A stretch of DNA of 64,000 nucleotides from Octopus vulgaris (taxonomy: Eukaryota), in contig OX597832.1 of NCBI GenBank assembly GCA_951406725.2, positions 67,270,001 through 67,334,000 on the forward strand. Direction: 5' to 3'. The position numbers and the translations under genes are program-made. The notes under the pieces were generated by a model. That model was not told the origin of the DNA and made no database searches. It saw only the letters and a list, made by a program, of their open reading frames with translations. Shown one piece after another: positions 13,027 through 48,685 of the stretch (the first letter of the stretch is position 1; the number at the start of each line of letters is the position of its first letter).

Positions 13027-15003
13027 AGGCGTAGGTGTGGTTGTATGGTAAGAAGCTTGCTTCCCAGAACACTACTACCTACTGCGCATGTTTTGTTTTC
13101 AATGTGCGCATGCGATATTGTCAGCGTTGTGCGTATCACTGAAAGAAGTGACCAAGCTGTGTAAAGCTGGTGAAAAAAGAAGCTCAAATATGAGGTAAGA
13201 CTTTTTTTTTGGGGGGGGGGGGGTCCAGTGGGGGTTTGTTATTTGCGGTAATTATTTTTGCACAAGCAAGAGGTCCTCACTGGATTCTAAACTCTGGTCT
13301 GCCTGCAGTTGAGCAAAAGTGGTTCACTTTTTTTCTCACATAATTGTGAGAATTGTTGCTTGGGGCGTATCGTGCCTCCTAAAAATTTGCTCACTTTTTG
13401 TGAATTTTATAAATAATTGTGAGAATTGCTCTTTTGGGGGAGTGTCTTTGCCTCCGAAGATTGAACGATTTGTATACCAGTTTTTGTGGAAGTTGTGTTC
13501 CAGTTGTGGCATTCCAGATTTGGCCTTCGCCGGAAGAATATTTGCTGCGTTTTTGAACTATTGACTTTCTTTCTTCTAAACTTGAAATACCTTGAAGAGA
13601 GGACGGTGGAATTGAGGACTTACTCCAAGTCGCTCGACAGCATCCCCTATTTGAAAAACTGTAATTGAAAAGGGGTTGAAAGAGTATCTGCCAACTATTA
13701 AATTCATCTCCAGTAGGGTCAAATACGCAACGGTATGGTCGCTATTTGACACCCCTAAAGAGGCTCGCAAATATGCGAGCCAGCCCTTAGAGGCAAAGAC
13801 ATCTCGTTTCTTCCCCCGTATTGTGGGAAGAGGTTGACAAGAGCTTGGGTTTTGGGTTGCCACCCGGGATAAAATCCGAGTGGATAGAGGAGACTATCTG
13901 TCGGGGTCTGGGTTGCAGCTGAGCCAAATTCATTAATGTGAAAGTGATTGGGAATGGGTCAAAAGTAGTTTTGACCCTGTGGAGCCAATCGGCCAATCTG
14001 GTTTCTCCAGATTTTTTTTTAATGGCCAGTGATTCTTGAGGGTCATTCCCCACCAGGTGTCATCGATGCCTGGAGCTTGGCCATATAAATAAAAACGGTC
14101 ACGTAAGAGAAGCACCCTCCCTCAGGCGAGAAGAAAAAAGAGGATGAGGAAGAGAAACGGGACATCGCCGGCAGTCGGTGACATAGTACCAGAATATCCG
14201 GGAATCTCGTCAGTGGGGGTTGTGCCACTGACAGTGGAAGAGATACTGTTGGTGGGAATTGCGCCGCCGACAGTAGAAGTGACTACCTCGATGCCGGAAG
14301 AAGACGAATTATTGGTCTTCTTCTACAGAGGCGGAGAGTTTGAGAATATGTTGGAAAAGCACCATAAGGTAGTACCTTTAGCCTGTACACGGGATCCTGA
14401 ATGGCCTCCGCAGATAGCTGTGGCGGTCATAACGTCGCCCGTGTTGCGTATGCTGCAGGTACTCAACGCGGAATATCACTTGTGGGCGTGCGATGCCGAC
14501 ATGGCACCCACTTTGTGCTCGAAGGAGGCGTGGCTAATGGCGGAGTATGAGCCACAAGCGGTGTTGTGGAGGAATATGGATAAGAGGTTGAAAAGCCTCA
14601 GTGTTAATGAAAGTTCCTAGTCTGGAAAAAAATGTGTCTTAGTGCCTTATTTTGTTATTGAATTGTGAACAATGTAAGAGGTTTGTTGCCTCATTAGTAA
14701 CATAAGATATCAATGTTCTCGGGGAAAAAACGGTCGGTGGGCGTCGCTTTTCCCCCCATTAATCAGCATTTTCATTTTTCATTTCATATTACATTTTGTC
14801 TGTGTCCAGCCAGCAGATTTCTATCTCTATGTAAGGCTTTTATGGCCAATATAATAAAATAAAGAATTTTGCTTCCAAACAACATGGTTCTGGGTTCAGT
14901 CTCACTGCGTGGAACCGTCAGCAAGTGTCTTCCATTTTTGTCGCCGCCCAATCAGACGCTTGTGAGGTTGAAATTGGTAGACGGAAACTGAAAGAAGACC
15001 GTC
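13027..15003 (+). mobile_element. SINE family A copy split by a 1.8-kb insertion
   Basis: Head aggcgtaggtgtggttgtatggtaagaagcttgcttcc (13027-13064) resumes at 14862 (aagaattttgcttccaaacaacatggttctgggttcagtctcactgcgtgg...gacggaaactgaaagaag), collinear with the uninterrupted copy at 44763. Confidence 0.88.
13065..14861 (+). mobile_element. ORF1-only non-autonomous non-LTR element (L1/Tx1-type ORF1-like), copy 1
   Basis: 15-bp imperfect TSD (13050-13064 / 14862-14876). Frameshifted ORF ~13576-14620 (EERTVELRTYS, YLPTIKFIS, WIEETICRGLG; knuckle CHRCLELGHINKNG at 14058-14099). 3' end homologous to 48160-48287 and ends in AATAAA. Confidence 0.8.
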
Positions 15004-15019
15004 CTATATATATATATAT

Positions 15020-15200
15020 ATAACAAAGTGAAGTTGTAAGGTACCGCACGAGTGGAAATATATATGAAAGAAGGTTTGAAATACAATTTTAAAGATGTTT
15101 ATTCATTCGAGCAAAGCTATTCTTCAGAAGCACGAGACGGAGGAAGGTCCAAGAGAAAAGGAAAACGGAGCAACAAAAAAAATCCCCAACGATTTACATG
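15020..15200 (-). mobile_element. Short PLE-LTR-like fragment with a decayed hammerhead-like motif
   Basis: Minus strand CTGAAGA-ATAGC-TTT-GCTC-GAAT at 15105-15127; resembles 23410-23590 and 42460-42640; follows a TA tract. Confidence 0.4.
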
Positions 15201-45140: not shown

Positions 45141-46275
45141 AAATGAATGAAAGCGTATGTACATGTGCATGTGTCTACATACAAACACAAACACACACTC
45201 ACACACACACACACACACACACACACACATATATATATATATACATATATATATCCACACACGTATGTATATCTGTATCTATGTATATATATATATCTAT
45301 TTAAGTATATATAGAAATATCTAGCAAGCAATAAATTACATATACAACAAAGCGCGTTGCAAGCATTGCTGGCTTTATATTGGGGATTATTGTTGTAAAT
45401 ATCTGGTGAGATAGAATATAAAACCAACTTCAAGAAAAGGCATAGAGGTCTGGTTGTGATGCTTTAAGTATTGAATGAACAGTTTTTAGGCAATAAGCAT
45501 ATGTCACATGCATCCAGTTATCTTCTTCACGTTTTGACTCCCAATTCTTTTTGTGTCCACTGACAATTCCTATTTTTGAATTTGGACTGTATCTATTACC
45601 ACAATACACATTCGTCCTCTTGCACATACTGATATACACACATAATGTTGCATATACACACTGAATCTCTATAACACATGTTACGATGCACACGAATACA
45701 GAAGCATGCCTTGTTGGATAAAAATCACGTACGCTCACCTTCTAGACCGTATATTCTTACCCAAATGCACACATTTATATACGTACGTATGCTTATCTGT
45801 ACACACATGCGGTGTTATCTCCTCATATAAACACTCGTGCACATTACGTATATACATTCAATCATCTACACATATTGATAACTCCATATATTATTCCATA
45901 TAATACCTTAAAGAATATAGAAATGTCAACATACTTAATAAAAACCTATAACTCATGCCAGCTTTTGGTACATCATCTCGCTTCTAAGGCACGAGTGCCT
46001 GATGATACGAAACGGCCATAGTGGCTGTGAATAAGGAGTTTTGTAAAGTCTGTTTCTTTTTTTTTTATTTTTCGCATCGTTTGATATATAAACTCTACTG
46101 ATAGAAAAGAATTCCTAAAGTAAGTCTTATGGGATATACCTCCATACTGTCGTTGATATCAGATAACCGAATACTGTGGACAGGCATTAAACAGCATACA
46201 ACAAAGTGTCTATCCCAATATAAAATTATATATATATAGGCGCAGAAGTGGCTGTGTGGTAAGAAGCTTGGTTCC

Positions 46276-48287
46276 GGTTCCGGTCGTTAGTTGTTCTCTG
46301 TGCCGTTGAAGTCGTCACGCTGGTGTGCAGCTGGCGAAAATTGAATTACTAAGACGCTCTACAGTATGGTAAGACTTTTTGCTTTCTGAGTCCAGTGGGA
46401 TTTGTTTATTTTATTTTATTTGATCTAGTTTCAGCTCACGAGCTGTGGCCATGCTGTTGCTTGTAGTTTTATTTTTTGTACTAGCAAGGAGTCCTTACTG
46501 GATTCAGAGCTTTTTGTCTGCCTTGCGGTGGAGACGTGTGTGTTTTATCACATAATTGTGAGAAATTGCTTTTTGAAAATTTCTGTGGATTATACAAAGG
46601 CCAGGAGTACCTTTCGGCCGAAGAAAATAGAAAATTATTGAAATTTTTATTCTTTGTGGATATACAAAGGCCAGTTGTACCTTTTGGCCGAAAATTGTTT
46701 TCTTTGCTATCATTTGAACTCTTGTTCGTGTCTATCATTTGGTTTGGAACAAAAACTTTATTAAACTGTTATTTTATTTGTTTCTTCCCTTCTGTTGTGT
46801 CTTCTTTCTATTTTTGTGTCTTTCTTTATTTTTAAATCTATTGTGAACTTTGTTTGAACTTTTTACACATGCCAAGGAAGAATGAAGCCACTGCCGTGGA
46901 GTGGGAGGTTGTCCTGCCCAAACAGTGGATTAAAGATCTTGAGACGAGGACGGTGGTACTACGGACCTATTCTAGGTCGCGTGGTGCCATCGCCCTCTTC
47001 GACGAGAGCGTAATTGAGAGAGAGTTGGCAGACTACCTTCCAACTATGAAATTTATTTCACGGGGGGATCAAATTTGCAACGGTGTGGTTGCTGTTTGGT
47101 ACCCCGAGGAAGCTGGCAGATTTGCCAGCGAACCCCTTGAGGGAGATGAAATTTTGTTCCTCTCCACTTATTGTGGAAGGAAGATAAGAAGAGCCTGGAT
47201 ATGCGGGTTGCCGCCGGGCATGGAGGCGAGATGGATCGAGGAGACCATCCGGCGAGGCCTGGGGGATAGCGGGTCCAGGCTATTGAGTGTAAAGATTACT
47301 CTCGCGGTCGACTGGGAGGGGTTAAAGGCAACTTTGACCCTGTGGACCCAGTGGCCGTGAGAGACATGATATTTCCGGATTTCTTAAAAATGGCCGGGTA
47401 CAGGTACCCGGTGATACTCGACGGACGCCCCCTCCCAATTTTCACCTGTGCCTGGAGCCTGGCCATATCAAAAGAAACTGTCCAGGGGACCGTGGTGGGG
47501 CCCTGGAGCATGAGAAAGAGAAGGTTCCCGCCGCCCCCTCATCGGAGGGGGAGACGGTGGCGGTTGCCTCCACGAAAAGAAAAAGAAAGGTGCGTAACAA
47601 TGGTTGCTCACCAAAGAATGTTCAGGCGGCGGAGGAGGGTAGCGACCTCCCACGTCTGTCGACGCAGCCCCCTGCTCCCGCAGCCTCAAAAAGAAAGAGG
47701 AAAAGGAGGAGCAGAGGACGGTCGGCGGATGTCCTGGGCCGCCGACGGAGCCGCAGGTGGGATGCCGCAGGTGAGAGGGCTCCGTCAGTGGGAAATGTGC
47801 TACTGACGGAGCAGTGTGAGGTCCCTTCCTGTGAAGAGGAGGTGTTTCTCCTCCTTTACCACGAGGGAGGGACGGTGAGTAAATTTTTGGACGGCTTGGG
47901 TGACCGAGAACGTGTGTACTCGGTCTGCCCAAGTAGTCCGATATGGCCTCCGTAGATGGCTGCGGAGGTAGTAACGGAAAGAACTTTGTCAAAGATCACA
48001 GCGACCTTTGACAAGGTAGAATTTGCTTTCCTCTTTGCAGGCCCCGACTTGCCGATGCAGAGTTGTCTGCAGGCGGCAAGTCATATTGCTTGTGGGACCT
48101 GACAAATAGAATTGTTGTAAAAAACTTTGTATTGTTGTAAGTAACATTGTATTCGACGGTTTGTCGGTCGGTGGGCGCCGACATCCCTCCCATCTTCATC
48201 ATGTCGTTTCATTTCATCTCATCTTGTCCATGTCAAGCCCACAAGCTTCTATCTATGTACTGGCCTTGTGGAAAATTATATGAAATA
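46276..48287 (+). mobile_element. ORF1-only non-autonomous non-LTR element, copy 2
   Basis: 15-bp TSD with one mismatch (46261-46275 / 48288-48302). Frameshifted ORF ~46869-48100 (ETRTVVLRTYS, YLPTMKFIS, RRAWICGLPP, WIEETIRRGLG; knuckle FHLCLEPGHIKRNC at 47440-47481). 3' end is AATAAA. Confidence 0.82.
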
Positions 48288-48685
48288 AAGAAGCTTGCTT
48301 CCAAGTCACATGGTTCCTCTTTCAGTTGTACTGCGTGGCACCTTGGCAAGTGACGTCTGCTATAGCCTCGGGTCGATCAAAGCCTTTAGAGTGGATTTGG
48401 TGAACGGAATCTGAAAGAAGCCCGTCATATATATATTTATACACACACACACACGCACGCGCACACACACACACACACACACACACACAAACACACACAC
48501 ACACACATATATATATATATATATTTCAATAAACCGTTACCAGGGTAGCAAAATTCACGTCAGAAACACGGTTGAAGCGACCTATCCAAAGGTAGAAACT
48601 CCGGGTTAATGTGCAGTAATTTGTGTGTTATAAATGAATAAATAAATAAACTGAGTTCAACGAAGATGTTAATAAAATTCTTTTC

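Follow-up and report, generated by a model that had tools for sequence, protein, structure and literature searches.

ORF1-only retroelements and an autonomous LINE that share one target site in the tRNA-derived head of an octopus SINE

Introduction

A 64,000 nt stretch of the Octopus vulgaris genome (contig OX597832.1, positions 67,270,001 to 67,334,000; hereafter the window) contains two copies of a short interspersed nuclear element (SINE) with a tRNA-derived head, each split at the same point by an insert of about 2 kb that carries one open reading frame only (ORF), related to the ORF1 of long interspersed nuclear elements (LINEs). The original prediction, made from the letters of the window alone, took the inserts for members of a long-lived, ORF1-only family that is targeted to the SINE and mobilised in trans by a site-specific LINE. 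The question is whether such a system exists, or whether the inserts are parts of one composite repeat, or remnants of larger elements. The evidence presented here points very probably to a three-part system, consisting of the SINE as target, an autonomous LINE (the driver) and ORF1-only elements (the passengers).

Results

Target specificity

The 2.8 Gb genome was searched with each insert and with a natural intact copy carrying an ORF of 418 amino acids (aa; P0001), and the queries used for specificity carried no flanking sequence. Insert 1 gave 2318 first-look candidates and insert 2 gave 2045, the best 40 of each being scored; P0001 gave 11,873, of which 100 were scored, with many open frames. 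These candidate counts are lower bounds and not copy numbers. After eight duplicates were removed there were 82 ORF1-only loci, six of them without a recognised 3' end. The target adjoined 73 of the 76 recognised 3' ends; 46 of the 73 run on into the tail of the SINE, and in 27 another unit or damaged flanking sequence follows. The 5' junction was located in 58 cases, and was preceded either by the SINE head, cut at the same point (46), or by the 3' end of another unit (12); three 5' assignments to neighbouring sites (L016, L044, L051) were left out, as were four copies on C14 and L027, which are segmental duplicates. The flanks are therefore not random, and the strict targeting of the SINE head that had been proposed is upheld.

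A degenerate 3'-end pattern had 815 exact matches genome-wide, 677 of which were followed by AAGWAG, and controls gave none. Weighing against strict specificity are the other 138 matches, which are without an exact AAGWAG, and the chance that the 815 include older autonomous copies. Twelve such exceptions among the first 100 matches consisted of five mutated SINE sites, two chance matches and five other flanks, four of which start with AA(A)G. Exact empty target sites number at least 52,500 in the genome.

The suggestion that the target was perhaps originally a tRNA gene is not supported. None of 28 sampled tRNA genes confirmed by ARAGORN carried the target within three mismatches, in a sample of few isotypes (of about 656,000 candidates, 63 were scored, 34 listed, 29 fetched and 28 confirmed). 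Among the sampled tRNA matches were numerous copies like tRNA-Lys(TTT) that carry scattered changes (L196-L219) and possibly represent a second tRNA-derived repeat. The host SINE has what we take to be a core-like motif. An earlier report names OR2 as an Octopus CORE SINE (PMC4758252).

The autonomous partner

The last unit of a row on C1 is 5.4 kb long and has both an ORF1 and an ORF2, the latter having an N-terminal APE endonuclease and a reverse transcriptase (RT) (Pfam Exo_endo_phos, E 4e-12; RVT_1, E 8e-28). The best solved relative of this ORF2 is human L1 ORF2p (E 8e-67). The ORF1 upstream of it gives a zf-CCHC match above cut-off, and intact frames of 487-488 aa occur in L140, L146 and L148. 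Its 3' end adjoined the same target in 30 of 30 copies fetched and in 104 of 108 exact 3'-end matches, and copies sit inside the same arrays as ORF1-only units, so that an autonomous APE and RT element with the same 3' end and target, as foreseen in the original prediction, has been found. Dozens of copies are 97-100% identical in protein, several have an open ORF2 of 1140-1150 aa, and in L140 both ORFs are open; by these features the LINE is young. Across L140-L157, ORF2 is often open and ORF1 often frameshifted (intact in 3 of 18), and the frameshifts may be real or homopolymer assembly errors. Membership of the Tx1 clade is likely on the basis of architecture, the RT tree holding only unnamed or hypothetical proteins and no named Tx1 reference.

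What driver and passengers have in common is limited to about the last 45 nt, and no longer nucleotide match was found at E 1e-3. A 4 bp hairpin in this common end showed compensatory changes in two of its four pairs among 35 natural copies, with 95.7% of cells paired and 15 cells compensatory. Among shuffled controls the count was 0 of 500, a test inflated by the relatedness of the copies, and slid controls were far lower than the real hairpin, with at most 56% paired.

A sister LINE was observed in (TC)n microsatellites at two loci (L158 and L159; C29:28.02 Mb and C6:37.28 Mb), with an ORF2 72-76% identical to that of the driver, an intact frame of 1138 aa and a related 3' end; since it inserts into (TC)n, target choice has switched between close relatives. 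A truncated, related RT lies directly after an (ATCT)n tract (L059:2521-3729) and perhaps belongs to another microsatellite-targeting family. A candidate second autonomous family targeting the SINE, in the C7 array, was rejected, as the site is the end point of a single copy, and nearby relatives end elsewhere.

Independence of the insertions

The elements are far less diverged than the SINEs that host them, and the insertions are therefore independent. In pairwise distance, the driver copies differed by 0.7% and the adjoining SINE tails by 6.1% (27 single autonomous loci; Wilcoxon p 1e-5 on distances to the majority sequence); the corresponding values were 1.5% and 7.6% for one ORF1-only subfamily (7 loci), 12% and 23% for the family of insert 1 (19 loci), and 7.8% and 24% for that of insert 2 (10 loci). 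Within the ORF1-only subfamilies, no correlation between element and SINE distances was significant, and none was positive. A caution against this comparison is that similarity to the query decided which top matches were picked, so that element distances come out lower, a bias that cannot explain the young families.

A single composite repeat, amplified as a SINE-insert-SINE unit, would fit the presence of old subfamilies in old SINE variants and of young subfamilies in young ones. It is nevertheless highly improbable, because the elements are 2-9 times less diverged than the flanking SINE tails, with uncorrelated distances, and because the 12 of 58 5' junctions noted above follow another unit and not a SINE head. 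Independent insertion, as originally proposed, is thus retained on the evidence of the distances.

The ORF1-only family

No similarity to ORF2 was present in any of the 62 units with both ends located, which were 1225-2746 nt long (median 2017 nt), in agreement with the absence of endonuclease and RT reported for the window copies. In an AlphaFold model of P0001 (mean pLDDT 65; folded parts 70-93), the protein is predicted to contain two RNA recognition motifs (RRMs), at residues 15-104 (La RRM match, Z 9.6, rmsd 2.6, 83 residues aligned) and 105-186 (Z 7.7), the tandem giving a Foldseek E of 5e-5. A CCHC knuckle follows at residues 191-206 (Pfam E 0.003, below cut-off), then a basic, disordered linker and, at the C-terminus, a small alpha/beta domain. 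For the C-terminal domain (residues 327-418, model pLDDT 79.5) there was no clear structural match, the best (Z 4.6; Foldseek E 0.15) being to ferredoxin-like arrangements only.

The ratio of nonsynonymous to synonymous substitution (dN/dS, omega) between subfamilies, a check that the original prediction had proposed, was 0.256 for residues 1-208 in eight natural intact copies (2dlnL 133 against omega = 1). ORF1 has therefore been kept by purifying selection across subfamilies with synonymous distances of up to about 2. A point against selection on the whole protein is that the linker and C-terminal domain are weakly constrained (pairwise dN/dS 0.15-1.4). With every autonomous ORF1 found, the passenger ORF1 shares 26-31% identity (26% with that of the driver), and in the ORF1 tree the family is a clade of its own, with support of 100/100 on a branch of 2.1 substitutions per site, from which it follows that the lineage is old and not the result of a recent deletion. 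A 57% identical relative is present in Octopus sinensis, and the named protein relatives are all from octopods.

These data also bear on the possibility that the ORF1-only copies arose from the present autonomous LINE through separate deletions. While the 3' terminus and the target are indeed common to both, such an origin is extremely unlikely in view of the distant ORF1 and its separate clade, the absence of an ORF2 remnant and, at E 1e-3, of any nucleotide match with the driver, the purifying selection between subfamilies and the relative in O. sinensis. The long-lived ORF1-only lineage that had been inferred from the window, with its own conserved ORF1 and 3' untranslated region (UTR), stands.

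A second ORF1-only lineage, of 1.4-1.5 kb, occupies the same site and has the same 3' hairpin (L094:7587-9108 in the C10 array, and L030 in the C7 array). Its ORF1 is 39% identical to that of the driver and 26% to that of the main family, with a separate origin in the ORF1 tree. The subfamilies of the main family are mosaic, in that the N-terminal RRM block, C-terminal domain, 5' UTR and 3' UTR differ in their nearest relatives in the alignment of natural copies, which suggests template switching or recombination between co-located units. Five near-identical, internally deleted copies of 1.2 kb with the same flanks (L019-L021, L024 and L025; C14:73.4-74.3 Mb) are evidently segmental duplicates of one insertion. 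In another unit, a 40-bp piece of 5' UTR is repeated about 18 times in tandem (L004:3399-4077).

Arrays

Single SINEs were found split by rows of units: eight on C1 (seven passengers and one driver), nine on C10, seven on C5, three on C4 and more than 15 on C7. The units lie head-to-tail with the target present at each junction, and the array sites are dispersed along contigs and bounded by SINE halves. Unrelated subfamilies, the second ORF1-only lineage and the autonomous element are mixed at identical junctions, where the units have evidently been inserted serially. Both the arrays and the second lineage are additions to the original prediction.

That the arrays arose mainly because one inserted unit was duplicated in tandem or by unequal crossing-over is improbable. 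It would account for the lower mean number of differences within arrays (15) than between them (25), and for neighbours that differ at only one or two sites, the latter being a point against serial insertion throughout. It does not fit the mixture of subfamilies, second lineage and driver at identical junctions, nor the affinities of particular units: C10_11912 has five differences from C1 units and 10-48 from its own array, and C5_4242 has five from a C1 unit and 24-27 from its neighbours. Serial insertion is therefore established for the mixed junctions, duplication probably contributing to some array runs; it may add to the uniform ones.

A dense cluster at C7:13.45-13.53 Mb (L100-L109) consists of the C7 array and, beside it, five or more related LINEs that have other junctions; one of these LINEs interrupts an ORF1-only unit.

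The 5' junction

The target copy on the 3' side is in every case local, unlike that on the 5' side. Of 32 single insertions of the young driver, ten had a non-canonical host 16-mer (L169 added by hand), and in none of the ten was the variant passed to the 5' copy; only some two of these mismatched junctions could be later mutations, as the elements are about 0.4% diverged. Seven of the hosts had their variant at positions 11-16: six of the corresponding 5' copies read GCTAACC, and the last, which is without the leader, shows a duplication of 9-10 bp (L162/L120). One passenger subfamily has the same 5' copy, one base shorter, at eight of eight loci, and the 3' copies there are not shortened. 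Junction variation clusters at positions 8-11, and in arrays an extra-T variant at positions 8-10 was passed locally to incoming units, sisters elsewhere being without it. The 5' end was kept in 23 of 23 driver copies that had been fetched irrespective of ORF length, two being trimmed by under 20 nt. By sequence, the distal half of the 5' 15-mer is evidently borne by the element. It is rather probable that this reflects a stagger of 9-10 nt combined with a target-like RNA leader that anneals to the overhang, and such annealing would probably explain both the near absence of 5' truncation and the rebuilt site.

Several observations weigh against this explanation. L145 and the C14 cluster differ between target copies at position 4, and L172 at position 8; some variants in the C7 array span the whole 15-mer across subfamilies, resembling a full local duplication; and the excess of extra-T junctions in mismatched hosts is weak (4/9 versus 2/22, p 0.04). 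The junction statistics are thin, a further 20 autonomous copies lying outside the sample. An ORF1/ORF2 boundary site flagged by the automatic junction scan was false.

A possible though less likely account of the same system, different only in where the top strand is cut and where the leader comes from, is that the duplication is really 15-16 bp and the 5' copy has been overwritten by the donor, through a transcription start a few bases upstream inside the donor's duplication or through later gene conversion, leaving the leader as a by-product. It would suit the target-like leader with which all the unrelated 5' UTRs start, the spread of local variants over junctions of different subfamilies (C7, C10 and C5 arrays) and the local variant carried by sister units on different chromosomes; the leaderless copy with only 9-10 bp duplicated, and the clustering of junction variation at positions 8-11, speak against it and favour the shorter stagger.

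Whether the leader also helps choose the site is doubtful. Integration would then be completed best where SINE bases 10-16 match the leader, and each subfamily's leader might, equally tentatively, track its own SINE subfamily (GCTTCC in old, CTTACC in middle and GCTAACC in young ones). TAAC-type hosts made up 23 of 27 young autonomous copies versus 49 of 100 empty sites (p 0.0008; the 100 counted by eye), and TTCCC-type hosts 0 of 27 versus 18 of 100, numbers explained as well by endonuclease preference alone or by better access to young SINEs. If true, leader-guided choice would give one LINE and at least two protein-coding hitchhikers a common landing pad that renews itself and is partly guided by RNA.

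Unrelated unit 5' UTRs begin with motifs (GCGCATGC, TTCCGG and GACGT) that resemble NRF1, ETS and CRE sites, respectively, hinting at internal Pol II promoters directly behind the leader. No relevant Rfam match to a 5' ribozyme was found at six loci.

The window inserts

On re-checking, the coordinates, orientation (SINE sense) and insertion point given for both inserts were correct (Table 1). Both encode the protein motifs quoted for them, and they are about 70% identical in nucleotides in four blocks (best E 2e-31). Each knuckle is without a different Cys, and the full CX2CX4HX4C, as reconstructed in the original prediction, occurs in natural intact copies elsewhere. Insert 1 is short because it has lost about 180 and 170 bp in two internal deletions, as compared with the copy L045.

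Three claims held only in part. The flanking 15-mers described as target site duplications do match, at 13 of 15 (insert 1) and 14 of 15 positions (insert 2), but are not pure duplications, about 9-10 bp being real and the remainder probably an element-borne leader. The terminal AATAAA is present, but consists of the element's last AAATA and the first target bases; the ORF1-only inserts have no poly(A) tail. Independence of the two insertions is borne out by the evidence given above, but the by-eye divergence argument for it was weak, because the host SINE tails are only about 70% identical and no closer than the alignable parts of the inserts.

Table 1. Positions of the two inserts, their host SINE copies and empty copies of the same SINE in the window.
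Feature	Position	Strand	Identity
Host tRNA-type SINE copy 1, 5' part (A-box side), cut right after ...GGT	13027..13049	+	86% to intact natural SINE copy
5' target copy, insert 1; first ~9-10 bp true duplication, last ~5-6 bp probably the element's own leader (judged from the family)	13050..13064	+	
ORF1-only element, old subfamily 1, dead; two internal deletions, several frame breaks	13065..14861	+	relatives 79-86% identical
Broken ORF1 remnant, insert 1: RRM-RRM-knuckle (at 14058)-linker-C-terminal domain	13582..14620	+	
3' terminal hairpin, insert 1: 4 bp stem, 5 nt loop; common to autonomous LINE	14835..14847	+	
3' target copy and remaining host SINE 1 head/body (B box, core)	14862..15010	+	
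Host SINE copy 2, 5' part	46238..46260	+	92% to intact SINE copy
5' target copy, insert 2: short true duplication and element leader	46261..46275	+	
ORF1-only element, old subfamily 2, dead	46276..48287	+	relatives 80-91% identical
Broken ORF1, insert 2: ATG 46869, knuckle at 47440, terminal stop 48102	46869..48102	+	76% and 47% identity blocks versus intact natural ORF P0001
3' terminal hairpin, insert 2, partly decayed	48261..48273	+	
3' target copy and remaining host SINE 2	48288..48433	+	
Empty (unoccupied) copy, same SINE	35204..35353	+	
Empty copy, same SINE	37883..38045	+	
Empty copy, same SINE	44763..44928	+	
Empty copy, same SINE	61053..61211	-	

The window holds at least four empty copies of the host SINE. 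A tRNA search of it with ARAGORN found none, and no host gene was obvious among its ORFs of 130 aa or more. Further mobile-element-like fragments were seen by eye on the minus strand at 561-2844, 4732-9741, 36704-37760 and 62308-63071, and are presumably, in that order, a Penelope-type RT/GIY-YIG element, an R4/Dong-like LINE, a CR1/RTE-like LINE and a mariner transposase.

Discussion

In the mechanism proposed here, the target is the abundant tRNA-headed SINE, and the driver endonuclease would nick its bottom strand at GGT^AAG[T/A]AGC, between the A and B boxes, after which target-primed reverse transcription would start on an RNA ending in the short hairpin and AAATA. Passengers of about 2 kb would borrow the driver ORF2 in trans, since they share only the last ~45 nt with it, and they keep their own ORF1 under purifying selection, most likely for packaging their own RNA in cis. 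The top strand would be cut about 9-10 nt downstream. The RNA would start with a leader that resembles the target and reads (T)GCTAACC in young families and CTTACC or GCTTCC in older ones; the complementary DNA of this leader may pair with the overhang over one or two bases or more and prime the second strand. The expected products are nearly always full-length copies with a complete target rebuilt on the 5' side, so that later elements of any family could insert again and arrays would grow. Splitting of the SINE might also silence it. A weak point of this scheme is the pairing of partners: which ORF2 moves which passenger is judged from sequence, and the old subfamilies of the window would have had to use an older driver.

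The system joins two known habits, strict Tx1-type targeting of a mobile element and ORF1-only riders of the HeT-A or HAL1 type. It is apparently still young and offers thousands of natural replicates, in which host SINE variants serve as built-in markers, so that the top-strand cut and second-strand priming, which make up the poorly understood second half of LINE integration, can be read from the genome. It also makes it possible to test for what reason an ORF1 is kept under selection in a non-autonomous element, and a cell assay is feasible because naturally intact driver and passenger copies exist. For targeted insertion, a LINE that places a full-length cargo of 5 kb at a single short site is of interest. 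In octopus annotation, these ORF1s have already been miscalled as uncharacterised host genes.

Several known systems are comparable. In stringent-type pairs of a LINE and its partner, the partner has a structured 3' tail in common with the LINE, and the octopus driver and passengers are similar in sharing ~45 nt with a covarying hairpin. Mammalian HAL1 (half-L1) is derived from L1 and differs from the octopus family also in its tail and site use: the octopus ORF1 is of RRM-RRM-CCHC type and related to octopod LINE ORF1s, and its element has no poly(A) tail and is site-specific. HAL1 is like the octopus family in being non-autonomous and encoding ORF1p only, and arose more than once (PMC5753468).

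The nearest parallel in targeting is that of the crocodilian Tx1-Mar LINEs and SINEU-3, where a Tx1-type LINE and a non-autonomous partner likewise target another transposon, tandem partner copies sandwich the target duplication, and independence from hitchhiking was shown in the same way (PMC4494074). There, the target is a Mariner DNA transposon, the partner a non-coding SINE with a snRNA-derived head, and the preference 13-90%, whereas the octopus elements target a tRNA-SINE head, with an ORF1-coding partner under selection and arrays of eight or more mixed units. Other families of the Tx1 group target Tx1D (Tx1), U2 (Keno), (TC)n (Kibi), (TTC)n (Koshi), 5S (Mutsu) and a tRNA-Leu spacer (Dewa) (PMC4494074, PMC3706591). 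They resemble the octopus driver as APE and RT LINEs with a strict target, and the octopus sister LINE in (TC)n is like Kibi, but the available parts of these two papers list no SINE among the targets and describe no ORF1-only partner.

HeT-A and other ORF1-only telomeric elements of Drosophila outnumber their ORF2 donor in mixed head-to-tail arrays, and represent long-lived clades arising from repeated loss of ORF2, which was not seen in non-telomeric Jockey elements (PMC5537684, PMC13534243). The octopus ORF1-only units similarly lie in mixed head-to-tail arrays with an ORF2 donor. HeT-A, of the Jockey clade, occupies chromosome ends with no sequence target, whereas in octopus the arrays are interstitial, and it is an endonuclease site in a dispersed SINE that nucleates them. 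At the 5' junctions of R1 and R2, target-like bases of the RNA 5' end have been proposed to anneal to the cut top strand, giving precise, full-length junctions (PMC2718515), and the SIDEs of R2 and R1 are non-autonomous, non-coding riders at the same site (PMC3414825). Target-like 5' priming and riders sharing the site thus have counterparts in octopus, but the extra bases of R1 and R2 are upstream 28S sequence or two G residues, while in octopus the leader is a copy of sequence lying downstream of the nick, by which the site is rebuilt.

A recent annotation of octopus repeats recognised 13 recently active L1-Tx1 families, and its main text has no mention of 'target', 'nested', 'ORF' or 'non-autonomous' (PMC13282606). 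No prior description of the combination was found in the literature searched; Repbase, Dfam, subscription journals and the supplements of PMC13282606 fell outside that search and may hold consensuses. Each ingredient of the octopus system has a precedent, and it is their combination, a SINE-head target, ORF1-only coding riders under selection, interstitial mixed arrays and a leader that would rebuild the site, that appears to be new.

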